Notes: a model not told the origin generated them from the letters alone. A stretch of 64,000 nucleotides of DNA from an uncultured Bacteroidota bacterium (GCA_937920105.1 CALETH010000070.1:73484-137483); one strand, 5' to 3'. Counted from the stretch's first letter, positions 6,259 through 48,164 are shown. A program made the numbers and translations.

Positions 6259-6780
6259 ATGAATTCCAGAACATCACAATATGTATTAGCATTCATACTC
6301 ATATTTTCTGCAGCACTTTCGCGATTATTACCACATCCACTAAACTTTACACCAATAGCCGCGATGGCATTATTTGGTGGAATATATTTAGATAAAAAAT
6401 TTGCATTTATTCTTCCATTTATTGCATTACTTATCACTGATTACATTATAGGATTTTATAGTGGTGCATATTGGGTGTATGGAAGTTTTGCTCTTATAGG
6501 AGTATTAGGTTTATGGTTGAAAAATTATAAAAATATTCCGGCAATAATTGGTGGAACATTTGCCAGTTCGATATTATTTTTTATCATTACAAATTTTGGA
6601 GTGTGGTTTAGTGGAACAATGTACACTAAAAATTTTTCCGGATTAATGGAATGCTACATTGCTGCCATACCATTTTTCCGAAACACCGTTGTAGGGGATT
6701 TATTTTATGTTGGTGTTTTGTTTGGAGTGTATGAATTGATAACAAAACTATTAGCAAAAAACTCAGTAGTAAAAGTTTAA
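6259..6780 (+). CDS. Small polytopic membrane protein, DUF6580-like putative transport/ECF-S-like component
   Basis: The 173-aa product has about 5 hydrophobic helices. The N-terminal pattern …SRLLPHPLNFTPIAAMALFGG… matches my recollection of the DUF6580 family. It lies immediately upstream of the B12 riboswitch. Confidence 0.55.
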   Translation: MNSRTSQYVLAFILIFSAALSRLLPHPLNFTPIAAMALFGGIYLDKKFAFILPFIALLITDYIIGFYSGAYWVYGSFALIGVLGLWLKNYKNIPAIIGGTFASSILFFIITNFGVWFSGTMYTKNFSGLMECYIAAIPFFRNTVVGDLFYVGVLFGVYELITKLLAKNSVVKV

Positions 6781-6791
6781 TAATATAACGA

Positions 6792-6951
6792 TGTATTGGT
6801 GTTCCGATTTTTATCGGAATGAAAAGGGAACTCTGTGAAAATCAGAGGCTGACCCGCAACTGTAAGTAGTAACAGAAAAAAATTTCACTGTTCATAAAAC
6901 GGGAAGAAATTTTTCCAACAGAAACTACAAGCCAGGAGACCTGCCAATATA
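6792..6951 (+). promoter_or_regulatory. Cobalamin (B12) riboswitch aptamer (RF00174 class)
   Basis: The conserved blocks appear in order: aaaagggaa, gtgaaaatc, gctgacccgcaactgtaa and the B12 box agccaggagacctgcc. P1 closes as tattgg (6794-6799) with ccaata (6944-6949). It sits upstream of a TonB-dependent receptor. Confidence 0.9.
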
Positions 6952-7002
6952 AAAAATCATTATCACCTTCGGGGAATGAGGTTGATAAAGAATAGTATTA
7001 TT

Positions 7003-7041
7003 TCATTCCCCCAAGTATTTTTCTTTGGGGATTTTTATTTT
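7003..7041 (+). terminator. Candidate riboswitch expression platform: intrinsic terminator with a competing antiterminator
   Basis: ccccaa (7009-7014) pairs with ttgggg (7025-7030) and is followed by atttttatttt. ggggaatga (6971-6979) can alternatively pair with tcattcccc (7003-7011), which would sequester the terminator's 5' arm. Confidence 0.5.
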
Positions 7042-7082
7042 GTACATACAAAAAATATTTTCTGTATCATTGATAAATAACC

Positions 7083-7112
7083 GTCATTCCCGCATGCTTT
7101 TAGCGGGAATCC
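7083..7112. repeat. 'gtcattccCGC…GCGggaatc' palindromic repeat; contains the likely btuB start codon
   Basis: The sequence is gtcattcccgcATGcttttagcgggaatcc. The same arms occur at 14264, 14342, 23895, 31877, 41267, 60658 and 63940. Confidence 0.75.
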
Positions 7113-9025
7113 ACATAATATTTTTCTTTATCCCCTCCCTCATCTTTGCCCAAGAACAAACAGATTCACTACATTACCAACTTAATGAAGTCCTTGTAAG
7201 CGGATTACGCATTCCCACCACAAAACAACAAGCCCCCTCATCATTAGAAATTATTTCTTTAGAAAAATCAACAACGCAATCTCTCGGAAATATTCTTCAA
7301 CAAACATCGGGAATTTTTTTGAAATCCTATGGAGGTGGAAGTGCAATACAAACAATTTCTTCCCGAGGAATGGGTGCAGAATATACACTTATTCTTGTGG
7401 ATGGACAACGATTAACAAATTTCCAAAATGGACTTGTTGATTTTGGAATTATTTCTACAAACAACATCGAAAAAATTGAAATTGCTAAAGGCGGATATTC
7501 TGCATTGTTTGGTGCGGATGCTGTTGGTGGAATCATTAATATTATTACTAAAAAACCAACAGACACTTTACAATTTTTTGGTGGAATTGGAATTGGTTCG
7601 GAAAAATTTCAACAATATACAGCAAGTATAAGTGGAGGAAATTCCAGTATTCAATGGAGAAGTGATTTTTCAAAAAAACAAAGTAACGAAAACCACCAAT
7701 ATTATTATAATAGTGGTGTAGAAAAAACACTGTTAACACGAAAAGGTACACAATATAATATTATACAGTTTAATAATAAATTAAATATTGGTATAGATGA
7801 AAATATTAAATCTTTTTTTAGTGGAATCTATGAATACGCTGATAGAGGTTCGCCAGCAGCAGTAACAAACCCTAACCCAATAAGTTCTGCTTTTCTTATC
7901 GATAAAAACTTTCATACACAGGGTGGAATAGAATGGACTATTTCTCCAGCGCTACAGTTTTCAACAAACACAGCGTTTCACTATACCAAACAAACTTACA
8001 ATGATTCATTATTAATCATTAATGGAAATCCATTACACAGTTATTATGATAACAAATTGTTCTCCATCACACCGCAAATTTATTATTCTATTTCATCATT
8101 TCACACAATAATAGCAGGAATAGAATTTGTTCACGCTTCTATTGTAAGTAATGAAGTGAAAAATAAAAATCGTGAACAATACAGCGCATTTATATCATCA
8201 AAAAATTTTGTTGATATTCATGAAATTACGGAAATCATTTTTTATCCATCAATACGATTTGATAAAATTTCTGATGTTAGCAAAGAACTAACACCAAAAT
8301 TAGGAGCAAATGTTGGATTTAAAAATTTTTCGTATCTACGGTTACGTGCAAGTTATGGAAATAATTTTCGTGTACCAACCTTTAATGATTTGTATTGGAA
8401 AGAGGGTGGAAGCCCAAAATTAAAACCCGAATATTCCCAAAGTTTTGATTGTGGAATTATTTCATCGATAGATTTTTTAGGAAATGTTGATATAGAAGCA
8501 AATTATTTTTCTATCAATACAAAAGATAGAATTTTATGGAAACCAACACAAAGTGGAATATGGTCTCCAACAAACATCAGTAAAGTTCTTTCACAAGGGA
8601 TAGAGTTGCAAACTCGTTGGAATGTATGGAATGATAATATTGCACTATCATATTCTTATACATTGATGAACACGCTGAAAAAAAGTTTAGATTTTTTTAA
8701 TGATGCAACATTTAATAAACAATTACCATACACACCACAAGAACTTGCAACAGTACAAGTAACTGGAAAATATGAAAATATTTTTTGCGGAATTTCACAT
8801 CGTTATATAGGATTTCGCTATACAACGGAAAATAATGATGCTCACTTTATTCTTTCCTCGTTTCATGTTGCTGATGTAAATATTGGAACGAATATCTTCT
8901 TTGAAAACGTTTTTGTAAAAATACAATGTGCTGTAGATAATATTTTCAATACGGATTATCAAATAATTCAATCATACCCAATGCCGTTACGAACATATAA
9001 AATTTTTTTCAATATAGAATATTAA
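7094..9025 (+). CDS. btuB: TonB-dependent outer-membrane receptor, cobalamin/corrinoid type (BtuB-like)
   Basis: The signal peptide is MLLAGIHIIFFFIPSLIFA/QEQ. Plug-domain blocks are present (GGGSAIQTISSRGMGAEYTLILVDG, IEIAKGGYSALFGADAVGGIINIITK). The barrel is long and ends in a terminal aromatic (…FFNIEY). It lies directly downstream of a B12 riboswitch. The TTG at 7025 in the ORF track lies inside the terminator, so the ATG at 7094 is preferred. Confidence 0.85.
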   Translation: MLLAGIHIIFFFIPSLIFAQEQTDSLHYQLNEVLVSGLRIPTTKQQAPSSLEIISLEKSTTQSLGNILQQTSGIFLKSYGGGSAIQTISSRGMGAEYTLILVDGQRLTNFQNGLVDFGIISTNNIEKIEIAKGGYSALFGADAVGGIINIITKKPTDTLQFFGGIGIGSEKFQQYTASISGGNSSIQWRSDFSKKQSNENHQYYYNSGVEKTLLTRKGTQYNIIQFNNKLNIGIDENIKSFFSGIYEYADRGSPAAVTNPNPISSAFLIDKNFHTQGGIEWTISPALQFSTNTAFHYTKQTYNDSLLIINGNPLHSYYDNKLFSITPQIYYSISSFHTIIAGIEFVHASIVSNEVKNKNREQYSAFISSKNFVDIHEITEIIFYPSIRFDKISDVSKELTPKLGANVGFKNFSYLRLRASYGNNFRVPTFNDLYWKEGGSPKLKPEYSQSFDCGIISSIDFLGNVDIEANYFSINTKDRILWKPTQSGIWSPTNISKVLSQGIELQTRWNVWNDNIALSYSYTLMNTLKKSLDFFNDATFNKQLPYTPQELATVQVTGKYENIFCGISHRYIGFRYTTENNDAHFILSSFHVADVNIGTNIFFENVFVKIQCAVDNIFNTDYQIIQSYPMPLRTYKIFFNIEY

Positions 9026-11059: not shown

Positions 11060-11144
11060 TATTTTACTGCCGAAATTTTGTCAACTGTGAAAGGTATATG
11101 AGAGCAGGTAAGAGGTAAAAGATTTGAAAGCGCTTTATTTTTAG

Positions 11145-11218
11145 TGCACCCAGAGGGAATCGAACCCCCAACCCTCAGTTTCGAAGACTGATGCTCTATC
11201 CAATTGAGCTATAGGTGC
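11145..11218 (-). tRNA. tRNA-Arg (anticodon UCG)
   Basis: The reverse complement is GCACCTA TA GCTC AATTGGATA GAGC A TCAGT CTTCGAA ACTGA GGGTT GGGGG TTCGATT CCCTC TGGGTGC A. It folds as a cloverleaf with a 7-bp acceptor stem, a TTCGATT T-loop and the anticodon loop CT-TCG-AA. CCA is not encoded. Confidence 0.9.
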
Positions 11219-17915: not shown

Positions 17916-19160
17916 ATGTCTTCACAAAATAATAATATAGACCTCTCTTCTTTACGTATCCAAAGAAACGAATCAAAAACGACTTCAACTAATTCCACTT
18001 CTTCAAAAAAGAAATTGTTTATTTATGGTGGGAGTGGAATTGCTGTCATTGTAATATTGTTTTTTTTAGTAGGAGGAATTTTTACTTCCACCGAAGAAGT
18101 GGAAGTAGGAACGGTTTCTCTCGTATCACCATCCCAAGCAAATTCTATATTGAGTGCAAGTGGTTATGTTGTTGCTCAACGAAAAGCTGCCGTTGCCTCT
18201 AAAGGAACGGGTCGTTTAGAATATCTTGCTGTAATAGAAGGTGACAAAGTAAAAGAAGGTGAAGTGATTGGAAGAATAGAAAATAGTGATGTGGAAGCCG
18301 CACTTGCACAAGTGAAAGCAAATCTTACCGTTGCAAAAGCAACTATTATACAAGCAGAAGCGGAATTTGAAGAGGCACAAGCAAATTTTGAACGTCAGAA
18401 AAAATTATTTGAACAAAAAACAATTTCTCAAGCAGAATATGATATTGCGAATGCTCGTTTCAAAAAAGCAAATGCTGCAATAACATCGGCACGTGCTGCG
18501 GTGCAAGCCGCAGAAGCCAATGTTCGTTCTGCGGAAGTGCAAGTAGAAAATACTATTATTCGTGCTCCGTTTGATGGAACAGTGTTAACAAAAAATGCTG
18601 ATGTTGGTGAAGTAATTTCTCCGTTTGGTGCATCTGCTGGTTCGCGTGGAGCGTTAGTTACTCTTGCTGATATGAATTCTTTGGAAGTAGAAGCCGATGT
18701 TTCAGAATCTAATATCGAACGCATTCAACAAGGTCAACCGTGTGAAATTACGTTAGATGCTTTTCCCGAAAAACGGTACCGTGGAGTTGTGCATAAAATT
18801 GTTCCTACCGCAGATAGAGCAAAGGCAACAGTTCTTACAAAAATTCGTTTTGAAGAACGTGATGCTCGCGTACTTCCGGAAATGCGTGCGAAGGTAAGTT
18901 TCCTTAATAATGAAACAAAATCTGAAATAGATTCTTCTCCCAAAATTTCAGTTCCAGCATCAGCAATTACAACAAGAAATGAAAAGAAAGTTGTGTTTCT
19001 TTTAAAAAATGAAATAGTAAAAGAAATTCCGGTTGTATTGGGAATACCATTAGGAAGTGGAATTGAAGTAAAGCAAGGTCTTTCTGTTGGAGATAAAGTT
19101 GTTCTTTATCCTTCTGAAAAATTATCTTCAGGAAAAAAAGTAACTATGAAAGAAAAATAA
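17916..19160 (+). CDS. Efflux periplasmic adaptor (HlyD/MacA family membrane fusion protein)
   Basis: The product has an N-terminal TM, a lipoyl-like half (GRLEYLAVIEGDKVKEGEVIGRIE), a long A/E/Q coiled coil, IRAPFDGTV and a beta-barrel domain. Confidence 0.85.
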   Translation: MSSQNNNIDLSSLRIQRNESKTTSTNSTSSKKKLFIYGGSGIAVIVILFFLVGGIFTSTEEVEVGTVSLVSPSQANSILSASGYVVAQRKAAVASKGTGRLEYLAVIEGDKVKEGEVIGRIENSDVEAALAQVKANLTVAKATIIQAEAEFEEAQANFERQKKLFEQKTISQAEYDIANARFKKANAAITSARAAVQAAEANVRSAEVQVENTIIRAPFDGTVLTKNADVGEVISPFGASAGSRGALVTLADMNSLEVEADVSESNIERIQQGQPCEITLDAFPEKRYRGVVHKIVPTADRAKATVLTKIRFEERDARVLPEMRAKVSFLNNETKSEIDSSPKISVPASAITTRNEKKVVFLLKNEIVKEIPVVLGIPLGSGIEVKQGLSVGDKVVLYPSEKLSSGKKVTMKEK

Positions 19161-19172
19161 GTTTTTATAAGA

Positions 19173-19209
19173 GATTGCTTCTTCCGTTAAAATGGAATCG
19201 CAATGACAG
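19173..19209. repeat. 'gattgcttc…cgcaatgaca' palindromic repeat (second subfamily)
   Basis: The sequence is gattgcttcttccgttaaaatggaatcgcaatgacag. Related copies lie at 35420, 35475 and 48041. Confidence 0.7.
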
Positions 19210-19260
19210 TACAAATTAAAACAAGTATCAAATTTCAATTATCAATTAACTATTATACTT

Positions 19261-19929
19261 ATGTCACTCGTACAAGTACAAAACGTAACAAAAGTTTATA
19301 AGCGGGATACGATGGAAATTCCCGTACTCCAAAATATTTCTCTCAATGTTCCTGAAGGAGAATTTCTTGCGTTAATGGGACCTTCCGGTTCTGGAAAAAC
19401 CACATTGCTTAATCTTATAGCAGGAATTGACCAACCAAATAGTGGTTCTATTATAATTGGTGGAACAGATATTGCTGCATTAAGCGAATCAGCATTAGCA
19501 AAATGGAGAGCAAGACATATTGGTTTTGTTTTTCAATTTTACAATTTGCTTCCGGTGTTAACAGCGTATGAAAATGTTGAACTGCCGTTGGTTCTTACCA
19601 ATCTTTCCAAAAAAGAAAAACGCGAACACGTAGAAATGGCGTTAAAGGTTGTCGGACTTTCCGATAGAATGGACCATTATCCACGTCAACTTTCCGGCGG
19701 GCAGCAACAACGCGTTGCGATTGCTCGTGCAATTGTTACTGACCCTACTTTAATTGTTGGTGATGAACCAACCGGAGATTTGGATAGAAAATCTGCAGAA
19801 GAAATTTTAGTATTGTTAGAACGTTTGAATAAAGAATTCAAAAAAACTATTGTGATGGTTACGCATGACCCAACTGCTGCGGAACGTGCGCACAAAATTC
19901 AACATTTGGATAAAGGTGAGTTGAAGTAG
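19261..19929 (+). CDS. ABC transporter ATP-binding protein (MacB/LolD type)
   Basis: Walker A is GPSGSGKTT, the signature motif is [14 protein letters not shown], Walker B is [12 protein letters not shown] and the H-loop is VTHD. Confidence 0.95.
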
Positions 19930-19931
19930 AT

Positions 19932-20147
19932 ATGAATATCAAACCACAACCCAATCATCAATTATATCTTGAAATAATTCGTTCAATGACACCTGCACAA
20001 CGATTGCAAAAAGCATTTGAACTTTCTGCATTTAGTAAAAAACTATTTCTTGATGGTTTGAAAAAGAACTATCCAAATCTTTCAGAAAAAGAATTTCAAG
20101 AAGTCATGTTAAAACATTTACAAAAATGTTACAATCAGAATTATTAA
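19932..20147 (+). CDS. Small helical protein (71 aa), partner of the downstream nucleotidyltransferase; function unknown
   Basis: …MTPAQRLQKAFELSAFSKKLFLDGLKKNYPNLSEKEF…CYNQNY. It overlaps the next ORF by 22 nt and starts 2 nt after the ABC ATPase stop. Confidence 0.55.
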   Translation: MNIKPQPNHQLYLEIIRSMTPAQRLQKAFELSAFSKKLFLDGLKKNYPNLSEKEFQEVMLKHLQKCYNQNY

Positions 20148-20704
20148 AAAGAGTTATTGATGTTTTAAATAAAAACGGAATTGATTACATGATTACTGGT
20201 TCAATTGCTTCCAGTCTTCACGGAATACCACGTTCAACGCACGACATTGATATTATTGTCATGTTAAGTAAAAAAGATATTGCTGTTTTTATACAATCAT
20301 TTCAAACACCAGAATTTTATATAGATGAACAAAGTATTATTGATGCAATGAAATACAAAAGTATGTTTAATCTTATTCATCTTAAAGAAGGAGATAAAGT
20401 AGATTTTTGGATATTAACAGAAAGTGATTTTGATACCACTCGTTTTTCAAGAAAGTATGAAGAAAAAATAAGTGATATAAAAGTAAAAGTGAGTACACCG
20501 GAAGATACCATTTTATCTAAACTACAATGGGCAAAACTATCAGATGGAAGTGAAAGACAATTATATGATGCCACAAGAGTGTATGAAATACAATATCATA
20601 AATTAAATATTTCTTATATAGAACAATGGGTTAAAAAATTACAATTAACAAAATATTGGAATCAACTCTTAAAAATTTCTCAAGACGAAAGTGAGTCAAG
20701 ATAG
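20126..20704 (+). CDS. Minimal nucleotidyltransferase-fold protein (Pol-beta superfamily), TA/defence-like
   Basis: GSIASSLHGIPRSTHDIDII fits the hG(G/S)x9-13Dh(D/E)h NTase signature. The product is 192 aa. Confidence 0.65.
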   Translation: MLQSELLKRVIDVLNKNGIDYMITGSIASSLHGIPRSTHDIDIIVMLSKKDIAVFIQSFQTPEFYIDEQSIIDAMKYKSMFNLIHLKEGDKVDFWILTESDFDTTRFSRKYEEKISDIKVKVSTPEDTILSKLQWAKLSDGSERQLYDATRVYEIQYHKLNISYIEQWVKKLQLTKYWNQLLKISQDESESR

Positions 20705-20706
20705 AT

Positions 20707-20958
20707 ATGATAGAAGTAGCAATGGAAAAATATCTAACGCGAATAATTCCCAATCTTGAAAAAACATGCGTTGGTGTATCACCAGAGGAAATAGACCAAA
20801 TAGAAAAAATAGCTGGTGAACCACTTCCATTATTTTATCGTTGGTTTTTATCAAAAATGGGAAGGAATAACAATATTTTTAGTCCAGATTATTCGGTACA
20901 GACGATTCTTAAAACTTATGCAGAGGGCGATATTGTTCCAGAGTCAGGATTACTATGA
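20707..20958 (+). CDS. SMI1/KNR4 (SUKH-1)-like protein, N-terminal portion
   Basis: …SPEEIDQIEKIAGEPLPLFYRWFLSKMG… matches the SUKH-1 'I..hE..hg..LP..Y..Fh…G' opening motif. It stops in an ATGA overlap with the next ORF. Confidence 0.55.
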   Translation: MIEVAMEKYLTRIIPNLEKTCVGVSPEEIDQIEKIAGEPLPLFYRWFLSKMGRNNNIFSPDYSVQTILKTYAEGDIVPESGLL

Positions 20959-21446
20959 TAGGATATATTGAAGACCAAATAATGCCTTCCTATGATTTTT
21001 ATGATTTAACTTGTCAAACACGAGAAGATGCTTTAGTATTAAATAGACTTGTGGATGATAGTATTTATAGAAAAAGTTTTGAAACTTTTTATGAACGTTT
21101 AGCATGGAGTGCAATGTTGGCTTATGGATTTAGCAATTTCAAAAATTCATGCAAGGCAACATTAACAGATACAAATTCAAACGTGCTTGAAACACTTCGT
21201 ATTGAAATGAATAAATTAAGTTTTACAGAACCAATTCCAACGGGTTCTTTTTGTGGAATTTTTGAACGAGATGATATTAAAATGACGTGTACTATTACAC
21301 CAAGTAAAGACCCTAAAAAATACATATTTTTTCATGTGGGTAGTAAAGATAAAGCAACAATTCAAAAATTTCTTACTACTCTTACTGAAAATACATCATT
21401 ATCGATAGATAAAACATTTTTAGAATATTCACGAATTTCAAATTGA
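20955..21446 (+). CDS. Hypothetical protein; possibly the frameshifted continuation of the SUKH-like ORF
   Basis: It starts MIGYIEDQ… in the -1 frame relative to 20707..20958. No independent motif was recognised. Confidence 0.45.
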   Translation: MIGYIEDQIMPSYDFYDLTCQTREDALVLNRLVDDSIYRKSFETFYERLAWSAMLAYGFSNFKNSCKATLTDTNSNVLETLRIEMNKLSFTEPIPTGSFCGIFERDDIKMTCTITPSKDPKKYIFFHVGSKDKATIQKFLTTLTENTSLSIDKTFLEYSRISN

Positions 21447-21496
21447 GTTTTGTATCAAAAAAGAAATAAAATATTTACATATAAAAACATTATCCT

Positions 21497-22654
21497 ATGA
21501 AAATCTTTAAAATAGTTTCTCGCAATATTTTGCGACACAAACTCCGCACACTTCTCACCATTCTCGGAATTTCCATTGCAGTCATGGCGTTTGGGTTGCT
21601 TCGCACTATTGTAACGGCATGGTCTGCGGGAGTGGAGGCCTCTGCTGCGGATAGATTAATTACGAGACATGCTGTTTCGTTTATTTTTCCGTTACCACTT
21701 TCTTATAAAGAGCAAATTGCCAAAATCGATGGTATCACTAATATAACCTATCTTAATTGGTTTCAAGGAATTTACATTGATGAACGCCAATTTTTTCCGC
21801 GACTCGCTGTTGACCCTGAAACTGTTTTTGATGTCTATCCAGAATTTATTCTTTCATCCACTGAACTTGAAAATTTCAAAAAAGAAAGAAACTCTTGTGT
21901 TATCGGAGAAAAAATTGCCAAACAATATAATTTAAAAATCGGAGACGTTATGCCTGTTACCGGAGATATTTATCCTGGTCAATGGGAATTTATTGTGCGT
22001 GGAATTTATAAACCGAAAGATAAAACTACGGATGCAACACAAATGTTTTTTCATTGGGCATATCTTGATGAACGGATGAGACAAGAATCTCCATCACGTG
22101 CAGGAATGGTTGGCTGGTATGCAACTCGAGTTGCTAATCCGAATCAATCCGCAGAAGTTTCGCAAGCCGTTGATAATCTTTTTGCAAATTCTCGAGCAGA
22201 AACAAAAACGGAAACAGAAAAGGCCTTTCAACAAAGTTTCGTTTCGCTTTCCGGAGCAATTATTACTTCGTTAGAAATTGTTTCGTATGTGATTATCGGA
22301 ATTATTTTACTCGTACTTGCCAATACAATGATTATGACTGCTCGCGAACGTATTCGTGAATATGCTGTGTTGAAAACACTCGGTTTTACTTCATTGCATA
22401 TTGGCGGATTAGTATTTGGTGAATCTATGTTTATTGCTATGTTAGGCGGCATTATTGGAATTGCCATAACATTTCCGTTGTGTGCTGGTTTTGGTGCAGC
22501 ACTTTCAACATTTTTCCCAATATTTAATATAGCGCCATCAACATTGGTGCTTGCAGCACTATTTTCACTTTCCGTTGGAATTTTTGCTTCACTTTTTCCA
22601 GCAATTCGTTCTATGAATATGAAAATTGTGGATGGATTGAGACAGATTGGGTAA
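21497..22654 (+). CDS. ABC transporter permease (FtsX/MacB-type, 4 TM with a periplasmic core domain)
   Basis: The N-terminal TM is RNILRHKLRTLLTILGISIAV. A large loop follows, then the C-terminal FtsX block REYAVLKTLGFT and 3 TM segments. Confidence 0.9.
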   Translation: MKIFKIVSRNILRHKLRTLLTILGISIAVMAFGLLRTIVTAWSAGVEASAADRLITRHAVSFIFPLPLSYKEQIAKIDGITNITYLNWFQGIYIDERQFFPRLAVDPETVFDVYPEFILSSTELENFKKERNSCVIGEKIAKQYNLKIGDVMPVTGDIYPGQWEFIVRGIYKPKDKTTDATQMFFHWAYLDERMRQESPSRAGMVGWYATRVANPNQSAEVSQAVDNLFANSRAETKTETEKAFQQSFVSLSGAIITSLEIVSYVIIGIILLVLANTMIMTARERIREYAVLKTLGFTSLHIGGLVFGESMFIAMLGGIIGIAITFPLCAGFGAALSTFFPIFNIAPSTLVLAALFSLSVGIFASLFPAIRSMNMKIVDGLRQIG

Positions 22655-22696
22655 GAATATCTTATAAAAATATTTTTCTAATTAAATTTTATCTTT

Positions 22697-23866
22697 ATGA
22701 AAATACCACTCAGTTATAACTTTCGAAATTTATGGGCACGCCGTTTAACAACATCACTCACCGTTGGAGGTGTTGCATTAGTAACATTTGTATTTTCTGC
22801 AGTGTTAATGCTTGCGTATGGATTGCAAGAAACACTCGTTGGCACTGGCTCGGATGACAACGTTCTTCTCATTAGAAAATCTGCACAAAGCGAAATGATA
22901 AGTTCTGTGGGAAGAGAATCTGCAGACATCCTTCGCTCACAACCGGAAATTACACTTGCTGCAGATGGAAAACAACTTGTTTCCAATGAAGTAGTTGTGA
23001 TTATCAACTTAAAGAAAAAAGAAACTAATGAAATGGGAAATGTTACCGTACGCGGAATTAATCCCAAAGGATTAGAAATGCGGCCACAAGTAAAATTAGT
23101 GGAAGGAAGAATGTTTAATTTTGGTTCATCCGAAATTGTTGTAGGAAGCAATGTGTATGAAAGATTTCAATCTACAGCGATTGGACAAACGATTCGCTTT
23201 GCAGGAAGCAACTGGACAATTGTTGGTGTGATTGATGCGGGCAAAAGCGGATTTTCTTCCGAAGTGTGGGGAGATGCAGAACAACTCATGCAGGCATTTA
23301 ATCGTCCCGTATACTCATCAGTTCTTATGCGGCTGCGTGATGCAAATGATTTTGATGCATTGAAAACAAAAATTGAAGCAGACCCGCGTTTGCAACAATT
23401 AGAAGTAAAAAGAGAAAAACAATATTATGCAGAACAATCCGAAATGATGGCGGGATTTATAAAAATTTTGGGAATGGTGGTAACAATCATTTTTAGTTTT
23501 GGTGCAATGATTGGTGCAATGATTACGATGTATGCTGCTGTTGCTAATCGTACTGTAGAAATTGGAACATTGCGTGCGTTAGGATTTCAACGCAGTACGG
23601 TGCTTACCTCATTTTTATTAGAATCATTATTGCTTTCGCTTATCGGAGGTGGTGTTGGGTTATGTCTTGCATCGCTTATGCAATTTATTACAATTTCCAC
23701 AACAAACTTTGGTACTTTTTCTGAATTGGCGTTTGGATTTGTTCTTTCACCCTCAATAGTTGTTTCAACATTAATTTTTTCTTTAGTGATGGGTTTTGTT
23801 GGTGGATTTTTACCAGCGTTTCGTGCAGGTCGGCTAAATATTATTAATGCGTTGAGAGCAAGTTAA
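22697..23866 (+). CDS. ABC transporter permease (FtsX/MacB-type), second paralog
   Basis: RNLWARRLTTSLTVGGVALV, VEIGTLRALGFQ and a C-terminal 3-TM bundle are present. Confidence 0.9.
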   Translation: MKIPLSYNFRNLWARRLTTSLTVGGVALVTFVFSAVLMLAYGLQETLVGTGSDDNVLLIRKSAQSEMISSVGRESADILRSQPEITLAADGKQLVSNEVVVIINLKKKETNEMGNVTVRGINPKGLEMRPQVKLVEGRMFNFGSSEIVVGSNVYERFQSTAIGQTIRFAGSNWTIVGVIDAGKSGFSSEVWGDAEQLMQAFNRPVYSSVLMRLRDANDFDALKTKIEADPRLQQLEVKREKQYYAEQSEMMAGFIKILGMVVTIIFSFGAMIGAMITMYAAVANRTVEIGTLRALGFQRSTVLTSFLLESLLLSLIGGGVGLCLASLMQFITISTTNFGTFSELAFGFVLSPSIVVSTLIFSLVMGFVGGFLPAFRAGRLNIINALRAS

Positions 23867-24732: not shown

Positions 24733-24766
24733 AAAACCCTTTCAAATTTCTTGAAAGGGTTTTTTA
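24733..24766. terminator. Bidirectional intrinsic terminator between convergent genes
   Basis: ccctttcaa (24737-24745) pairs with ttgaaaggg (24751-24759). It is flanked by an A-run upstream and a T-run downstream. Confidence 0.75.
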
Positions 24767-24803: not shown

Positions 24804-25946
24804 TTATTTAGAAGAAACTAAAACTGGAACTTCTTCCGAAGATTTTTTCTTTTTACGATTATGTTTTTTTTCAGAAATCGCTTCTTTACTTTTTTCGTTT
24901 TTTTCTTCCTTTACATCCGGATAATGATAAATATCATTTTTATAATTTCTCATGACAATATCATCACCATTACGTCCTAAAATATATTGTGGAAGTAAGG
25001 GAATTTTTCCACCACCACCGGGAGCATCAATAACATAGTGTGGAACAGCAAGCCCAGAAGTGTGTCCGCGTAATTTATCCATAATATTTAAACCAACACT
25101 TACTGGTGTTCTAAAATGATTTGCTCCTTTCGTAATATCTGCTTGATACAAATAGTACGGTCTCACGCGCATTGCTAATAATTTTCTCATTAATTCTACC
25201 ATCACATCTGGGTCATCATTTACACCTTTCATAATTACCGCTTGGTTTCCTACGGGACATCCTGCATCCGCAAGCATTTCGCATGCTTTTTTTGCCTCTG
25301 GTGTACATTCCCATGGATGATTAAAATGTGTATTGACATAAATAGGATGATATTTTTTTATCATCTTACATAATTTGGGTGTGATGCGTTGTGGAAGTAC
25401 GCATGGCATTTTTGTACCAAGACGTATAATTTCTACATGGGGAATTTGACGAAGTCCGGCAAGAATTTTTTCTAACATGATATCTGTTAACATTAACGGG
25501 TCTCCGCCGGAAAGTATCACATCACGAATTTCCGGATGAGCAGCAATGTAATCCAAACCGCTTTGGATGTACTTCATACTAATTTTTCCGGAATCTCCCA
25601 CTTTTCTTTTTCGTGTACAAAAGCGACAATACATGGAACACTGACTTGTTGTTAAAAATAATGCACGGTCAGGATAACGGTGAGTGATGCTGGGAACTGG
25701 ACTATCTCTATCTTCATTTAATGGGTCTGTTGGAAAATCATCATCTTCCAATTCAATTGCATCAGGAATACATTGCAACCAAATCGGGTCGCCGGGATAA
25801 CGAATGAGACTAAGATAGTATGGGTTAATGCGAATGTGAAATAGTGTGTTGAGTTTATCGGCGAGTTCCTTATCAAATCCAAAACGTTCAACAAGGTCTT
25901 TTCCGCTATCAACGCTTGCTCGTAGCATTTCCTGCCAGAGTTCCAT
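24804..25946 (-). CDS. kamA: Lysine 2,3-aminomutase family radical-SAM/PLP enzyme (KamA/AblA-like) with a Lys-rich C-terminal tail
   Basis: The radical-SAM cluster motif is CSMYCRFCTRK. The PLP-lysine block is DAPGGGGKIPLLP, and SGGDPL is present. The 380-aa product ends in …KKHNRKKKKSSEE…. Confidence 0.9.
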   Translation of the reverse strand: MELWQEMLRASVDSGKDLVERFGFDKELADKLNTLFHIRINPYYLSLIRYPGDPIWLQCIPDAIELEDDDFPTDPLNEDRDSPVPSITHRYPDRALFLTTSQCSMYCRFCTRKRKVGDSGKISMKYIQSGLDYIAAHPEIRDVILSGGDPLMLTDIMLEKILAGLRQIPHVEIIRLGTKMPCVLPQRITPKLCKMIKKYHPIYVNTHFNHPWECTPEAKKACEMLADAGCPVGNQAVIMKGVNDDPDVMVELMRKLLAMRVRPYYLYQADITKGANHFRTPVSVGLNIMDKLRGHTSGLAVPHYVIDAPGGGGKIPLLPQYILGRNGDDIVMRNYKNDIYHYPDVKEEKNEKSKEAISEKKHNRKKKKSSEEVPVLVSSK

Positions 25947-25967
25947 AAAGTGATGCCTTTATATTGT

Positions 25968-26441
25968 TTATAAATATTTTCCGTAAATAAGAAGAGCGTC
26001 GTTAGGTTTATAATATCCTTCAATGCACGCCAAACATTGAAAGCCCTTTTTTGTGTAAAACATTCTTGTCATTTCGTACGGTGATGTTGATGATGTTTCC
26101 GCAATCAACAATCGTCCATTTTTTTTTCGCAAATAATTTTCTACATATTCTAATAGTTGTGTTCCGATTCCTTTATTGTGTAATGATGGTTCTGTTGCAA
26201 TCCAATATAAATCGTAGGTTCCCTGTGTTGCTGGTGTTGGACCAATACAAATATATCCTTTTGCAATATCTTTTTCATCAACATACACAAATATTTCATA
26301 ATCTTTTTGTGATGGTTGTGTAAGAACGATTTCTACTAATTCATCAGCAATATCAATTTCTTCTTTGCTAAAAACTTTTGTTGCTGTAACAATGTTGTGA
26401 ATTTCTTGTGCATCTTTTTTTTGTAAAGAACGAATAGACAT
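25968..26441 (-). CDS. GNAT family N-acetyltransferase (possible beta-lysine acetyltransferase analog)
   Basis: The acetyl-CoA binding block is …ATEPSLHNKGIGTQLLEYVENYLRKKNGRLLIAETS… (Q/RxxGxG/A type). The product is 157 aa and ends 21 nt upstream of kamA. Confidence 0.85.
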   Translation of the reverse strand: MSIRSLQKKDAQEIHNIVTATKVFSKEEIDIADELVEIVLTQPSQKDYEIFVYVDEKDIAKGYICIGPTPATQGTYDLYWIATEPSLHNKGIGTQLLEYVENYLRKKNGRLLIAETSSTSPYEMTRMFYTKKGFQCLACIEGYYKPNDALLIYGKYL

Positions 26442-26447
26442 ATACTT

Positions 26448-26586
26448 TTAAACTATGATTAAATGATAAGTATGAATACTATGAGTATGATTTTTTCGAT
26501 TATACATCATTATTATCATGAAAATCATTGAATCATAGTTTTAGAAAAATGTATAGTCATCATAAAATCATTTAATCATAGTTTAA
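26448..26586. repeat. MITE-like 139-bp element bounded by perfect 20-bp inverted repeats ('aactatgat…atcatagtt' family)
   Basis: ttaaactatgattaaatgat (26448-26467) is the exact reverse complement of atcatttaatcatagtttaa (26567-26586). An internal third partial copy is present (gaatcatagtt). The right arm contains the stop codon of the upstream ATP-grasp gene. Confidence 0.7.
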
Positions 26587-27668
26587 ATTAAAGAATATCT
26601 ATCTGCAGCGTACTCTACAATTTTTTGAATGGTTTCATTAAAAGAAAGACCATGCGTTTTTGTAGAACGTATAAATCCGGAATCATTAGAAATATCTGGA
26701 TTAGGATTCACTTCTAAAACGTAAGGTTTATTATTTTGTGAGAGACGCATATCAACGCGTGCATAATCTCGACAGCCTAACAATTTATAAGATTTTAAGG
26801 CAGTGCGTTTTACTAATTCTTCAACATCAGGAGAAAGAATCGCTGGACAGACTCCTTTTGTTCCTTCATATTCAACAGAACCATTTAACCATTTTGCATC
26901 ATACGTTACAATTTTTGGATAATCTTCTGGTAGACCAGAAAAATCTATTTCGGAAATTGGCAATACAATAGGTCTTTTATTTCCTATAACGGCAATATTT
27001 AATTCACGTCCCGGAATATATTCTTCCACAATTGCTGGTTGGTCATATTGTTGAAAAATATGCCGCACCTTTTTTTTTAATGCAGCAAAAGAATCTACAA
27101 TGGAATTGTTATCAATACCCACACTGGCGTCTTCTTTTGCCGGTTTTACAATCATTGGAAAAGAAAGTGTAATATCGTCTGCATTGATTTGATTTAATTG
27201 TGTGCAAACAAAAAATTTTGGTGTGGAAATGTTGTTGTAGGAAAGTATTTCTTTGGTACGTGCTTTGTTTAAACAAGCACCTAAAGTGATAGGTGATGAA
27301 CCTGTGTAAGGAATCTTCAGTAATTCATACATTCCGGCAATGTGCATTTCGTGAATTGCTTGGTCTCCCAAACTTTCTACCATGTTAAAAATTAAATCCG
27401 GTTTTTCTTTAGAAAGAAATTTGAGAAATCTCTCCATGTTGTCCGACATATTGAAGATAGTCGTTTTGTATCCTAACTCTTCAAGTGCAGATTGGATTTC
27501 TTCTTTTTGCTCAAGAACTCCTATTTCGGACATGTCAAGTTTGTTCGCAATTTTTGTTTCGGTGCTTTCTTGAATCATTCCACTTTCGGAAATAAATTTT
27601 CTTCCATTTCCGGTTTGCACGGTTGGTTCGTTATAAACGATGGAGATGTGGAGTAAGTTTTTGTTCAT
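26583..27668 (-). CDS. ATP-grasp ligase, D-Ala-D-Ala-ligase-like (paralog 2)
   Basis: KARTKEILSYNNISTPKFFV, FPMIVKPAKEDASVGI, VEEYIPGRELNIAVIGN, ARVDMRL and VLEVNPNPD are the pre-ATP-grasp plus ATP-grasp blocks. Confidence 0.85.
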   Translation of the reverse strand: MNKNLLHISIVYNEPTVQTGNGRKFISESGMIQESTETKIANKLDMSEIGVLEQKEEIQSALEELGYKTTIFNMSDNMERFLKFLSKEKPDLIFNMVESLGDQAIHEMHIAGMYELLKIPYTGSSPITLGACLNKARTKEILSYNNISTPKFFVCTQLNQINADDITLSFPMIVKPAKEDASVGIDNNSIVDSFAALKKKVRHIFQQYDQPAIVEEYIPGRELNIAVIGNKRPIVLPISEIDFSGLPEDYPKIVTYDAKWLNGSVEYEGTKGVCPAILSPDVEELVKRTALKSYKLLGCRDYARVDMRLSQNNKPYVLEVNPNPDISNDSGFIRSTKTHGLSFNETIQKIVEYAADRYSLI

Positions 27669-27835
27669 AGAGTTATTTTTTTAACTATGATTATATGATG
27701 TATATGATTTGCATGATGAAAAAATTTTCAGATACGAGTTGTGTTTTGATAATCCATACAACCCATAGTGAAAAAAAAATAGGATACTTATTTTTACTGA
27801 TTTCTGATATCGGAATACTGAAAACTAAAACCCCA

Positions 27836-28924
27836 TTACTGATTCAATCCATATCTTTTACATGCAGCATTGAGTACACGATTAATCATTTCATTGTACT
27901 GAATTCCTGCAACGCGTGCTGCTTTTGGATAACATGAATTTTCTTCGGGATTGGGTAAAATTCCCGGTAGTGGATTTATTTCTATAATATGTGGAATTCC
28001 ATGTTCATCTAAACGGACATCAATGCGAGACCAATCTTTGCAACGCAAAGTGTTATAAGTATTCAAACATAATTTTTCTATTGATATTTGTAATGCCGGA
28101 GATATTTTCGCCGGACATTCAAAAATATTTAACGGATTTTTTGCTTGGTCCCAAATCCATTTTGCTTCAAAAGAGTAAATCGGATTTACTCCATCAGGTA
28201 ACGAATCAAATTTAATTTCTACGATAGGAAGAACTTGTGTGGTATTTCCATTTCCCAATAACGCAACGGTAAATTCTTTTCCGGGTAAAAATTTTTCTAC
28301 CAAGGCAGGTTCATTATAGGAAGAAAGTATTTTTTCTATTTGTGTAAAAAGTTCTTCTTGTGTTTGCACAAATGACGTATTAAAAATTCCTTTACTTGAA
28401 CCTTCATATAACGGTTTTACCATTAACGGAAATGAATGATGATGTTCAGAGATTTTCTGAAGTTCATCAAGAGAATGAATAACAAAAAATTTTGATGTGG
28501 GAATGGAATGATAAGAAAGGATTTCTTTTGTGCGGGCTTTATCTAAACAAGTTGCAAGTGTTAATGCATCGGAACCAGTATAAGGTATGTTAAGAAATTC
28601 TAACATTGCAGGAATATGTGCTTCCCGAGAAACACCGTATCTTCCTTCGGCAATATTAAAAACAATGTCAGGACGCAATGATTGCAATTTGTGAAATGCA
28701 TTTTCATCTGCTTCAATCATTTCCACAGAATGAAAAAGTGCTAACGCATCACGAACAGCAGTGATTGTTTCTATGGTATCCCATTCAGCATACGTATCAT
28801 CGTTTGGTGATACTTGAACTTGTGTGCTGACATCCGATGAGATGTTCTGACTCGAAGGTTGAGAATTGCTTTCGGCAAATTCCGTTTCTTCCTTCTTCAA
28901 GTTGTAGACTAACGCTACTTGCAT
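27836..28924 (-). CDS. ATP-grasp ligase, D-Ala-D-Ala-ligase-like (paralog 1)
   Basis: KARTKEILSYHSIPTSKFFV, FPLMVKPLYEGSSKGI, VEKFLPGKEFTVALLGN, SRIDVRL and IIEINPLPG are present. It is colinear with 26583..27668. Confidence 0.85.
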   Translation of the reverse strand: MQVALVYNLKKEETEFAESNSQPSSQNISSDVSTQVQVSPNDDTYAEWDTIETITAVRDALALFHSVEMIEADENAFHKLQSLRPDIVFNIAEGRYGVSREAHIPAMLEFLNIPYTGSDALTLATCLDKARTKEILSYHSIPTSKFFVIHSLDELQKISEHHHSFPLMVKPLYEGSSKGIFNTSFVQTQEELFTQIEKILSSYNEPALVEKFLPGKEFTVALLGNGNTTQVLPIVEIKFDSLPDGVNPIYSFEAKWIWDQAKNPLNIFECPAKISPALQISIEKLCLNTYNTLRCKDWSRIDVRLDEHGIPHIIEINPLPGILPNPEENSCYPKAARVAGIQYNEMINRVLNAACKRYGLNQ

Positions 28925-28990
28925 AAAGTGTGTATCAAAAAAATTTCTTTAACGCCTTTCGTACTATGAATAAAAAAATTTACTTGATAC

Positions 28991-29018
28991 AATATAAGAA
29001 ATAAAAAAATGTAGTCAA
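28991..29018 (-). promoter_or_regulatory. Sigma-70-like promoter candidate for the ATP-grasp/GNAT/kamA cluster (TTGACT-16 nt-TATATT on the minus strand)
   Basis: The reverse complement of 29013-29018 is ttgact, and that of 28991-28996 is tatatt. The site is ~67 nt upstream of the ATG at 28924. Confidence 0.4.
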
Positions 29019-32385: not shown

Positions 32386-33426
32386 TCACTTTACATTCAA
32401 TTTTGTTTTTTTATTTGTATTCATTCTATAATTTTGTACAGAAAATTCTTGTGGAAGGTGATACACAATACTTTGATTGCTGATGTGAACAATAAGAGAA
32501 TCATCACTAATATTTTCTACAATAGCATTTTCTAATTCTGTAGAAGTGAATAACGAATCAGGATACAAAGTTAATGCAATTCCGTCATCAGTTTCTTCCA
32601 CCAATGTTTGAATTCCGGCTGCTATATTTTTTGTTTGTAATGTGTTAGAAGGACGTTGTTCTAAAACAATATTTTGTGAAGTATTTTTCACTGCAAGATT
32701 AACTTTTTGTGTTTCGCTTTTTGATTTTTTTGCAGCAAAGTTATCCCTTTTTTGTAAACCTTCTGCAAAAGATTGCGTTGCCGCAGAAGGCATTGAGCGG
32801 TCTCTTCCTACAGAAATAGGAACAACCGTTCCAACAATCCACATTGCTCTGCGGGAAATATTATTGACTGATGGTGCTGATGTAATAGTTTTATCTTCAT
32901 CTTTAAATGCTAAATTTTCTCTTTTTTCTTCATTTAAACGTTCAGTTTCTACTGTACTTTCTGCAATATCCGATATTTCTTCTAATTGCTGTTTTTCTTT
33001 TATAGGTTCTTCACTTTTTTTCTCTTCTATTTTTTTATCAGAAATATTTTTTTCTTCTACTTCTTTAAACACATATTGTGTAGAACCGAATTTTTGCGGA
33101 AACTGCATTGGTCCAAACCACATTTGATAGACAGCAATTCCTCCAATCATAATTACTACGGCAGCAGCCAAACTCACCAAATATCGTTGCAATGGATTTC
33201 TATTTTCTCGTTCGATATGTTGAGCAAGTTTTCCTTTCATTTTTTTTCTTCCGTACGCACGGATTCCTTCTGCTAATGAAAGTTCTTGTGTAACAAGAGT
33301 TTTACATTGTTCACATTCTTGCAAATGTTTTTCCAAAACAACACGTTCTTCTTGCAAAATATTTCCAAGAATGTATTGTTCTAGTAATTCGGGATTTTCA
33401 GTCCAATGAAGAATATTCGTTTTCAT
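32386..33426 (-). CDS. Anti-sigma factor (zf-HC2 type, single TM, K/E-rich linker and extracytoplasmic domain)
   Basis: The N-terminal motif is HLQECEQCK and the TM is LVSLAAAVVIMIGGIAVYQMW. It overlaps the upstream ECF sigma gene by 4 nt. Confidence 0.75.
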   Translation of the reverse strand: MKTNILHWTENPELLEQYILGNILQEERVVLEKHLQECEQCKTLVTQELSLAEGIRAYGRKKMKGKLAQHIERENRNPLQRYLVSLAAAVVIMIGGIAVYQMWFGPMQFPQKFGSTQYVFKEVEEKNISDKKIEEKKSEEPIKEKQQLEEISDIAESTVETERLNEEKRENLAFKDEDKTITSAPSVNNISRRAMWIVGTVVPISVGRDRSMPSAATQSFAEGLQKRDNFAAKKSKSETQKVNLAVKNTSQNIVLEQRPSNTLQTKNIAAGIQTLVEETDDGIALTLYPDSLFTSTELENAIVENISDDSLIVHISNQSIVYHLPQEFSVQNYRMNTNKKTKLNVK

Positions 33427-33989
33427 ACATCAACTTTTTCTAATAATTTTTCCAACATTTTTTTGCATTGATATTTTTTTGATTTTACCGTTTCTGCATT
33501 AGCAAAACCTGTCCGTTGGGCAATTTCTTCCATAGAAGATTCTTCCCAATAAAAAAGCAGTAAAATAGTTTTACACGGCTCACCAAGTTTTTGCAATGCT
33601 ATTTGCACGGCATCAATGGTTTCTTTTTCTATCAAGATACTTATAATAGAGTGTTCTTCGGAAGGAAGGGTTTCTACTTCATCATTGATAGAAATAATTT
33701 TTTTTGTTTGCGAAAGTTTGCGAAACCAAAGATTTCTTACGGTTGCATAAAGAAATGTGCTGATTTTTGCAGCGTGTTCATATTTTCCTGAACGAACTTT
33801 TTGCCAAAATATCACCAACACTTCCTGCAACATGTCTTCCGCGTCTTCGAGCGTTCCATTATGTTTTGTGATAAAAGAAATAATCATTCGTTTGTTGGCA
33901 TTGTATAATGTTACCAACACTTTTTCATCACCTTCACGGATGCGTTCTAAAATATTTTCGTCGCTGGAAAATAGTGCGAATGAATTCAT
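33423..33989 (-). CDS. RNA polymerase ECF-type sigma-70 factor
   Basis: Region 2 is DAEDMLQEVLVIFWQK…YATVRNLWFRK. Region 4 carries the HTH SMEEIAQRTGFANAETVKSKKYQCKKML. Confidence 0.85.
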   Translation of the reverse strand: MNSFALFSSDENILERIREGDEKVLVTLYNANKRMIISFITKHNGTLEDAEDMLQEVLVIFWQKVRSGKYEHAAKISTFLYATVRNLWFRKLSQTKKIISINDEVETLPSEEHSIISILIEKETIDAVQIALQKLGEPCKTILLLFYWEESSMEEIAQRTGFANAETVKSKKYQCKKMLEKLLEKVDV

Positions 33990-47956: not shown

Positions 47957-47961
47957 CTGTC

Positions 47962-48164
47962 TTAAACTATGATGAAATGATAGGTATGATGACCATGATT
48001 TTTAACTATGATGAAATGATTTGTATGATTACTATGATACTGTCATTGCGAGTTCCGATGTAGTCGGAACGAAGCAATCCACCACTGGCGGACTACTTTA
48101 TTAGCAATACCGAAAAAAATAATAAATTCATGTCCATCATAATAATCGTTTAATCATAGTTATA
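47962..48164. repeat. Composite repeat nest: two direct 'ttaaactatgatgaaatgat' units, a 'tgtcattgcgag…gaagcaatcc' hairpin and a terminal inverted 'atcgtttaatcatagtt' unit
   Basis: The direct copies lie at 47962-47981 and 48001-48020. The hairpin lies at 48041-48080. The inverted copy lies at 48145-48164 and encodes the last residues (…TMIKRLL*) of WaaA. Confidence 0.75.

Follow-up and report, generated by a model that had tools for sequence, protein, structure and literature searches.

A widely conserved four-gene cluster links a predicted lysine 2,3-aminomutase and a small acetyltransferase to two Ddl-fold ATP-grasp ligases that are almost certainly not D-alanine-D-alanine ligases

What would a bacterium make with a lysine 2,3-aminomutase, a small acetyltransferase and two different ATP-grasp ligases encoded side by side? 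The question is raised by a locus in a stretch of 64,000 nucleotides from an uncultured Bacteroidota bacterium (GCA_937920105.1, CALETH010000070.1:73484-137483), the whole of which is termed the window below. A sequence-only reading of the window had picked out four co-directional genes and could match them to no described pathway. An open reading frame (ORF) check recovered all four on the minus strand with exactly the coordinates given there:

28924..27836, minus strand: G1, Ddl-fold ATP-grasp ligase of orthogroup 1, 362 residues (Pfam Dala_Dala_lig_C, 7e-35)
27668..26583, minus strand: G2, Ddl-fold ATP-grasp ligase of orthogroup 2, 361 residues (Pfam Dala_Dala_lig_C, 2e-36)
26441..25968, minus strand: small GNAT acetyltransferase of the 2R7H family, 157 residues (Pfam Acetyltransf_7/1/4/10)
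25946..24804, minus strand: KamA-family radical-SAM/pyridoxal phosphate (PLP) lysine 2,3-aminomutase, 380 residues (Pfam LAM_C and Radical_SAM)

We consider it reasonably probable that these genes form one functional unit which turns L-lysine into a small beta-lysine-derived, amide-linked compound. Their arrangement is not due to chance. A scan of the one-genome-per-species collection of GTDB release 232 was conducted with a GNAT alignment as query, and the best 80 loci were kept. In 77 of them, among which are loci from Ignavibacterium album, Chlorobi-labelled metagenome-assembled genomes (MAGs) and Calditrichia, G1, G2, GNAT and KamA follow one another on one strand as in the window; the three exceptions (L041, L050 and L084) are of Desulfobacterota type. 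Clustering of the ORFs from the 80 loci indicated that these four genes alone are universally linked, with recG upstream in 41 loci. KamA homologues of 80-87% identity were abundant in Ignavibacteria and 'Bacteroidota' MAGs, and three independent contigs displayed an identical four-gene order, with genes that overlap or abut and with variable genes downstream. Co-conservation of the four genes goes beyond what the sequence-only reading had guessed, as it was found in Ignavibacteria-type genomes, in Calditrichia, in Desulfovibrio and in Planctomycetota. No other conserved linked ORF was detected in the 80 loci by this survey, which covered ORFs of at least 90 residues, and a precursor-peptide system of the type made on ribosomes and modified after translation was considered and given no support by it. 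In 15 of the 80 loci (for example at L001:9228-9803) KamA is directly followed, on its own strand, by an ORF of about 191 residues that is absent from the window; this ORF gave no Pfam match and is thus not EF-P.

Of the family models in NCBIfam, the window KamA passed only the generic TIGR00238 (300.7 bits, cutoff 199.2). It scored 468.3 bits against the AblA equivalog TIGR03820, below the cutoff of 525.4, as did the KamA of a Desulfovibrio cluster described further on (461 bits), and it did not reach the cutoffs of the models for glutamate 2,3-aminomutase (422, cutoff 650), arginine 2,3-aminomutase (333, cutoff 600) or EpmB (235, cutoff 369). Since these models leave the substrate open, residues were mapped instead onto the C. 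subterminale lysine aminomutase (LAM, PDB 2A5H), with which the window protein shares 55% identity over 311 residues (E 1.5e-118). Both motifs reported earlier, CSMYCRFC and PGGGGK, are present in the window protein. The CxxxCxxC motif and the equivalents of Arg134 (carboxylate binding), Asp293 and Asp330 (epsilon-ammonium binding) and Lys337 (the PLP lysine, in PGGGGK) are invariant in 71 Ignavibacteria-type and five distant cluster KamAs. In glutamate 2,3-aminomutase the two Asp positions are reportedly occupied by Lys and Asn, an observation said to go back to Ruzicka and Frey in 2007. Because the window KamA keeps both Asp residues, it is assigned by its sequence to the lysine-type enzymes, and glutamate or arginine specificity was ruled out for the same reason. 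Beta-lysine is its likely product, every lysine-binding residue of the solved Clostridium enzyme being kept, and the earlier description of a catalytically complete aminomutase can be extended to a predicted lysine-type one. The equivalent of the Zn-site residue Cys268 is Asp or Asn in all cluster KamAs. The Lys-rich C-terminal tail remarked upon in the sequence-only reading is real: a charged, Lys/Arg-rich segment (approximately residues 344-380, window 24804-24914) that is Cys-free and variable in sequence, is confined to the Ignavibacteria-type orthologues and sits where the clostridial LAM has its C-terminal region. In the Desulfovibrio cluster KamAs the C-terminus is instead a short tail that contains Cys.

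The two ATP-grasp proteins are paralogous, as had been proposed, with 38% identity between G1 and G2. Automatic annotation names both of them 'D-alanine-D-alanine ligase', and their best solved relatives are true Ddl enzymes (E 1e-31 and 1e-28). An AlphaFold (AF2) model of G1, with a predicted local distance difference test score (pLDDT) of 80.8, has the full three-domain Ddl architecture and gives template modelling (TM) scores of 0.72-0.84 to Ddl structures at 22-27% identity; a structure search with this model returned Ddl structures only and no nearer functional analogue. The best scores against the NCBIfam Ddl models were 192 for G1 and 173 for G2, below the cutoff of 243 (NF002378), and both proteins were far below the cutoffs of VanA, VanC, VanG and the remaining Ddl models.

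To map residues, 65 G1 and 72 G2 orthologues were aligned with E. coli DdlB, whose numbering is used here. The equivalents of K97, K144, E180, E187, K215, R255, D257, E270 and N272 are invariant in all of them, and both ligases look catalytically competent for amide-bond formation through an acyl-phosphate. The lid loop is also retained, about 10 residues longer than in DdlB. The D-Ala site is altered. His63 is replaced by Glu and Tyr216 by Trp in both G1 and G2, Ser150 by Ala and Gly276 by Asp in G2, and Leu282 by Cys in G1 and by Gly in G2, and the replacements at these five positions are fixed across the orthologues. In addition, Glu68 is replaced by Arg in G1 and mostly by His in G2, and G1 has a four-residue insert after the Gly276 position. 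The N-terminal Ddl motif GG-S-E-EVS gives way to VYN plus a long insert in the cluster ligases, and G1 carries a low-complexity insert at residues ~13-40. Judged from these replacements, the pockets of G1 and G2 appear larger, more acidic and different from each other. Because the Ddl cutoffs were failed and the pocket changes are fixed and paralogue-specific, the two proteins are almost certainly neither Ddl enzymes nor redundant copies of each other; the possibility raised earlier that they might be ordinary Ddl or RimK orthologues was not borne out.

The same features extend to a wider family. A profile search with G2 in 1.84 billion cluster representatives retrieved 16,220 at E <= 1e-3 and 1,726 at E <= 1e-30, a set that may include true Ddl. 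The top 150 G2-like representatives score at least 220 bits, whereas solved Ddl sequences score about 100. In 111 G2-like representatives with a single domain, Tyr216 is replaced by Trp in every case, His63 by Glu or Asp in 108 and Gly276 by Asp in 83. From their sequences, the G2-like proteins appear to form one large and coherent family, to which annotation routinely gives the name Ddl.

The acetyltransferase could be traced to a solved protein. The window GNAT shares 43% identity (E 2e-32) and the signature GPTPAT-GTYDLYWIA with PDB 2R7H, a structural-genomics entry from Desulfovibrio deposited as 'putative D-alanine N-acetyltransferase of GNAT family', a name that appears to derive from adjacent 'Ddl' annotations. 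In the literature we found no assigned function for the 2R7H protein, and the single paper found to cite the entry concerns an unrelated toxin. When the window GNAT was scanned against NCBIfam, no AblB-type model was matched, weak matches to RimI and AAC were all far below their cutoffs, and no aminoglycoside- or streptothricin-acetyltransferase assignment was obtained. AblB/YodP proteins are about 270 residues long, some 100 residues longer than the window GNAT. The aminomutase and the acetyltransferase had been described as an ablAB-like pair; since the GNAT has no AblB-model match and belongs to the distinct small-GNAT family typified by 2R7H, that description stands as a functional analogy and not as membership. 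At least 592 species-representative genomes encode a GNAT relative according to the GNAT-alignment scan.

Loci from further phyla were gathered by a sequence search with 2R7H followed by context retrieval, and they carry the same genes in rearranged order:

L087, Desulfovibrio mangrovi: sigma-54 activator and KamA-G1-G2-GNAT, followed by a GNAT-Hist_deacetyl fusion
L090, contig with a gene for a protein of 99% identity to 2R7H: sigma-54 activator, KamA-G1-G2-GNAT
L088, Planctomycetota MAG: amino-acid permease, KamA-G1-G2-deacetylase fusion-GNAT
L089, metagenome contig: two Ddl-like genes, about 3 kb with unrelated genes, deacetylase fusion-GNAT
L091/L092, metagenome contigs: KamA, a small CxxCxxCC protein, G1-G2-deacetylase fusion-GNAT
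L093, contig with a hydrazine-synthase-like neighbour: KamA-G1-G2, a beta-propeller gene of pyrroloquinoline quinone (PQQ)-like type, GNAT

In L090 the GNAT that is nearly identical to 2R7H is encoded directly after KamA-G1-G2. No KamA was found within the 14.6-kb stretch of L089, and an anammox-like label for L093 rests solely on the adjacent hydrazine-synthase-like gene. The first ligase of both L087 and L088 best matches window G1 and the second, as best reciprocal match, window G2, and the one complete ligase of L089 best matches G2. Because each has its own orthologue in the Desulfovibrio and Planctomycetota clusters, G1 and G2 can be regarded on sequence grounds as old, separate orthogroups.

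A further partner is present in four of the six distinct non-Ignavibacteria contexts examined. It is a fusion protein of ~580-597 residues (L087:7629-9386, L088:5265-7004, L089:5265-7004 and L091:6211-8004) that joins a weak N-terminal GNAT domain to a domain of the histone-deacetylase/acetylpolyamine-amidohydrolase family, and it is named by no NCBIfam model. Its presence suggests a logic of acetyl protection and deprotection. Fusions also occur among the cluster proteins themselves: the top 150 G2-like representatives include 10 tandem G1-G2 fusions of 637-789 residues, three fusions of G2 to a GNAT of this type and several more fusions of a ligase to other GNAT subfamilies. The natural G1-G2 fusions suggest that G1 and G2 may form a heteromer. 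In one lineage a 174-residue CxxCxxCC-type protein (PF03692, faint) is encoded between KamA and G1 (L091:3671-4195), and the G2-like representative P0433 bears an N-terminal DUF3109 domain; these may be accessory metal or Fe-S partners.

A pathway can be proposed from these elements. KamA would convert L-lysine to beta-lysine (3,6-diaminohexanoate), a step to which its conserved substrate-binding residues point strongly. The small GNAT would then acetylate one amino group, either of beta-lysine or of a ligated intermediate, and acetylation would give regiocontrol and block self-condensation of the diamino acid. G1 and G2 would form one amide bond each through an acyl-phosphate, and in lineages with the GNAT-deacetylase fusion the acetyl group would be taken off last. 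Such a route would lead to an (N-acetyl-)beta-lysyl molecule resembling a di- or tripeptide, which might act as a compatible solute, serve as a polyamine-like cation or be the precursor of a larger compound. In agreement with the chemistry put forward in the sequence-only reading, we infer one or two ligations onto beta-lysine or acetyl-beta-lysine. The sigma-54 activator of Desulfovibrio and the amino-acid permease of Planctomycetota might, speculatively, point to a regulated metabolism linked to amino acids or nitrogen. More broadly, the module extends across Ignavibacteriota, Calditrichota, Desulfobacterota and Planctomycetota, and we give about an even chance to the view that it is an ancient set of four enzymes, in which both Ddl-fold ligases, themselves not Ddl, bear an acidic-Trp-Asp pocket signature, with an optional GNAT-deacetylase, and which leads either to an undescribed beta-lysine peptide-like metabolite or to a new beta-lysyl modification of a macromolecule.

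Several observations weigh against this proposal. No transporter, regulator or amidotransferase that might hint at a role is consistently linked in the 80 loci. In the three Desulfobacterota-type exceptions (L041:6818-8614, L050:8001-9663 and L084:3911-5638) the gene for a GNAT relative of 45-49% identity lies immediately upstream of one for phosphofructokinase, and neither KamA nor ATP-grasp genes are found close by; the substrate of this GNAT family therefore need not be beta-lysine. The deacetylase fusion is missing from the Ignavibacteria-type loci, and no histone-deacetylase-family gene was found by tblastn in the window. The mapping of the Glu15 equivalent in the ligases falls in a gappy N-terminal region of the alignment. 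Finally, the record titles of the host MAGs point largely to freshwater, soil and groundwater as sample sources, which argues weakly against a classic salt-stress solute.

Four other explanations were weighed against a small amide-linked product. The ligases might build oligo-beta-lysine or a mixed cationic polyamide, or might amidate a wall or capsule carboxylate with beta-lysine, acetylation serving as self-protection until export. Two distinct ligases could indeed act as initiator and elongator, G1-G2 fusions exist, an EPSP-synthase/MurA-family gene lies upstream of the cluster in the L091/L092 lineage, and self-resistance of the streptothricin type operates by acetylation of a beta-lysine moiety. 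However, polymerase activity is not known for Ddl-fold enzymes and the GNAT has no match of the streptothricin-acetyltransferase type; because the cluster is conserved without any accompanying gene for an exporter, a membrane protein or cell-wall synthesis, such a polymer or decoration is disfavoured, and we consider it unlikely. A protein or peptide target seems to us decidedly unlikely. The ligases would in that case place (acetyl-)beta-lysine on a protein, at a carboxylate or an amine, by a RimK/TTL-like route or by an EpmA-independent route to EF-P, with the GNAT and the deacetylase as editing enzymes. In other bacteria the beta-lysine for EF-P does come from KamA-family enzymes, proteins are common targets of GNAT and histone-deacetylase-family enzymes, G2 gives weak Pfam matches to TTL and RimK, and the cluster is kept like a housekeeping locus beside recG throughout Ignavibacteria. 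Yet the aminomutase is of AblA/clostridial and not of EpmB type by its model scores, linkage to efp, to epmA or to a conserved small substrate ORF was seen neither in the 80 loci nor among the immediate neighbours in the window, and a small-molecule product is favoured over a protein target because G1 and G2 keep the closed small-molecule architecture of Ddl together with its lid loop.

The two remaining explanations are of a more ordinary kind. KamA and the GNAT could simply make N-epsilon-acetyl-beta-lysine beside two peptidoglycan Ddl paralogues placed there by chance, in keeping with the automatic Ddl annotation and with the established pairing of an aminomutase and an acetyltransferase in AblA/AblB. 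This is very improbable: G1 and G2 fail all Ddl cutoffs and have changed D-Ala sites, the GNAT is shorter than AblB and not of its type, and the linkage outlasts rearrangements of gene order across phyla and is reinforced by fusion proteins. That the cluster performs the first step of lysine fermentation through beta-lysine is barely credible. Clostridial lysine fermentation does begin with KamA, and an enoyl-CoA hydratase gene adjoins the cluster on the opposite strand, but that gene is not conserved beside the cluster in relatives and ATP-consuming ligases are ill-suited to such a route; fermentation is disfavoured because no catabolic genes are linked, genes of the KamD/E, Kdd, Kce or Kal type being absent from the window neighbourhood and from the 80 related loci. 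The small beta-lysine-derived amide remains the reading that we prefer.

The cluster is delimited in the window by the following signals and contains the following spacers:

29018..28991, minus strand: sigma-70-like promoter candidate TTGACT-16-TATATT (10/12 matches), in the 191-nt spacer between recG and G1
24733..24763, both strands: bidirectional intrinsic terminator with a stem of 13-14 bp and T-runs on each strand
27669..27835, minus strand: G1-G2 spacer of 167 nt, with a partial palindromic repeat copy at 27678-27729
26447..26587, no strand assigned: palindromic repeat element in the G2-GNAT gap, with perfect 21-nt inverted termini TTTAAACTATGATTAAATGAT
27679-27699, 26524-26544, 47961-47981, 48000-48020 and 48145-48165: further copies of the 21-mer

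The promoter-like site was located as claimed earlier and carries little evidential weight. Because such sites are not enriched in the region relative to shuffled sequence (28 against 22.3 +/- 5.5), it is only a candidate. The bidirectional terminator was confirmed as a hairpin common to the end of the cluster and to the convergent enoyl-CoA hydratase gene on the opposite strand. Upstream of G1, recG lies on the same strand, and from the other side a MacB-type ABC efflux set converges on the cluster along with the enoyl-CoA hydratase gene. PADLOC models gave no match among the four proteins, so that no known anti-phage defence system was recognized, and an Rfam scan detected no credible RNA element in or around the cluster.

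Both intergenic gaps (167 and 141 nt) had been described as repeat-filled, and we agree: the G2-GNAT gap is almost wholly one palindromic element, the termini of which lie at 26447-26467 and 26567-26587. Its RNA would fold into a hairpin of -37.7 kcal/mol (z -5.7), which no U-tract follows and which is thus not terminator-like. The 21-mer occurs in seven copies in the window against 0.03 expected, and the copy of the repeat at 47961-48165 lies between two unrelated genes ~21 kb from the cluster. The same repeat fills the G1-G2 gap of the distant relatives L076 (6655-6671) and L083 (6505-6521), and in L083 it holds a tandem array of ~14-nt ATGATGAAATGAGA units. The median gaps in 68 complete related loci are 32, 5 and 24 nt, with some genes overlapping, which makes the window gaps outliers. 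We interpret the long gaps, from sequence comparison, as insertions of a dispersed repeat into an ancestral tightly packed operon. Since they are outliers and filled with repeats, they provide no evidence for independent promoters; a reading of the gaps as marks of independent transcription units was discarded as unsupported, and the separate promoters considered in the sequence-only reading are not indicated, although internal promoters are possible in such AT-rich DNA. The palindromic element represents a family resembling miniature inverted-repeat transposable elements (MITE) or repetitive extragenic palindromes (REP), and may be mobile or may have been recruited as a hairpin for mRNA stability or regulation.

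Other features were observed elsewhere in the window. The MacB-type efflux set (17916-23866, plus strand) consists of an HlyD-like adaptor, an ABC ATPase and two FtsX/MacB permeases; between the ATPase and the permeases sit three small ORFs (20126-21446), the first with a weak match to the DUF6036 nucleotidyltransferase, which seem to have been inserted into the transporter operon. An extracytoplasmic function (ECF)-type sigma factor (33989..33423, minus strand), encoded two genes upstream of recG, overlaps a 346-residue protein (33426..32386, minus strand) that has CxxC at its N-terminus and a predicted membrane segment and gave no Pfam match; the two are probably a sigma/anti-sigma pair. A cobalamin riboswitch (6780-6962, plus strand; Rfam RF00174, 117 bits) stands directly upstream of a 666-residue ORF (7025-9025), and a single tRNA-Arg (anticodon TCG) is encoded at 11144-11218 on the minus strand.

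The cluster bears on annotation and on metabolism. Many genomes call these ligases Ddl, almost certainly wrongly, and the cluster takes in a protein of solved structure and no assigned function (PDB 2R7H). The module joins a radical-SAM supply of a beta-amino acid, two successive ATP-grasp ligations and acetyl protection or deprotection, a combination that we did not find described, and in its full form it occurs in several phyla that are important in anoxic sediments, groundwater and wastewater, with mostly anaerobic hosts. If the proposed pathway is correct, it would add a new branch to the beta-amino-acid metabolism of mostly anaerobic bacteria and would give a function to a large misannotated 'Ddl-like' protein family. 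Once identified, the product might turn out to be a compatible solute not known before, a substitute for polyamines or a new kind of modification. The source of 2R7H is presumably Oleidesulfovibrio alaskensis G20, which we expect to have the cluster and take to be genetically tractable; if so, the question of the product would be directly testable in that organism.

How does the cluster compare with known systems? No published pathway for this gene set was found in the full-text literature, in keeping with the sequence-only reading, although an earlier, purely computational mention is possible. Literature joining 'aminomutase' and 'ATP-grasp' contained nothing relevant to the cluster, and a paper on the D. 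vulgaris sigma-54 regulon does not mention the cluster genes in its text or supplements. The cluster failed the membership tests for the AblA equivalog, AblB, Ddl, EpmB/EpmA, Ngg, BlsG/BlsI and the lysine fermentation operon. As in AblA/AblB (KamA/YodP), an AblA/clostridial-type lysine aminomutase is genetically coupled to a GNAT with beta-lysine as a likely intermediate. It differs in the aminomutase, which scores below the AblA cutoff (468 vs 525) and is without the Zn-site Cys268, in its small 2R7H-type GNAT and in the obligatory linkage of two Ddl-fold ligases, to which elsewhere the GNAT-deacetylase fusion is added. The ligases share with the Ddl/VanA family the fold, the ATP, Mg and acyl-phosphate residues and the lid loop with its Lys215 equivalent, but they are only 22-27% identical to it, their D-Ala-site residues are replaced and their lid loop is extended.

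The Ngg/AsnO pathway to the osmolyte N-acetylglutaminylglutamine amide, reportedly described by Sagot et al. in PNAS in 2010, likewise couples N-acetylation by a GNAT to ATP-grasp dipeptide formation and yields an N-acetylated small peptide. Ngg is an N-terminal GNAT fused to a grasp domain of the RimK/cyanophycin-synthetase type that uses glutamine. The ATP-grasp-GNAT fusions of the G2 family recall it, but their order is grasp then GNAT, and in the cluster the proteins are separate, there are two ligases of Ddl type, the beta-amino acid would be supplied by an aminomutase and no AsnO-type amidotransferase is linked. In blasticidin S biosynthesis in Streptomyces, the arginine 2,3-aminomutase BlsG and the ATP-grasp ligase BlsI belong to a secondary-metabolite cluster with a nucleoside acceptor and many tailoring genes; there too a KamA-family aminomutase makes a beta-amino acid that an ATP-grasp enzyme joins through an amide bond, whereas the present cluster has only four genes, closely grouped and fixed at a housekeeping-like locus in whole classes of bacteria. 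It differs from the genomic context of 2R7H, as KamA comes first in the Desulfovibrio clusters and is preceded by a sigma-54 activator. We conclude that the cluster is real and strongly conserved and that it encodes an apparently uncharacterised ligase module, predicted to use beta-lysine, which represents a variation within known enzyme logic.

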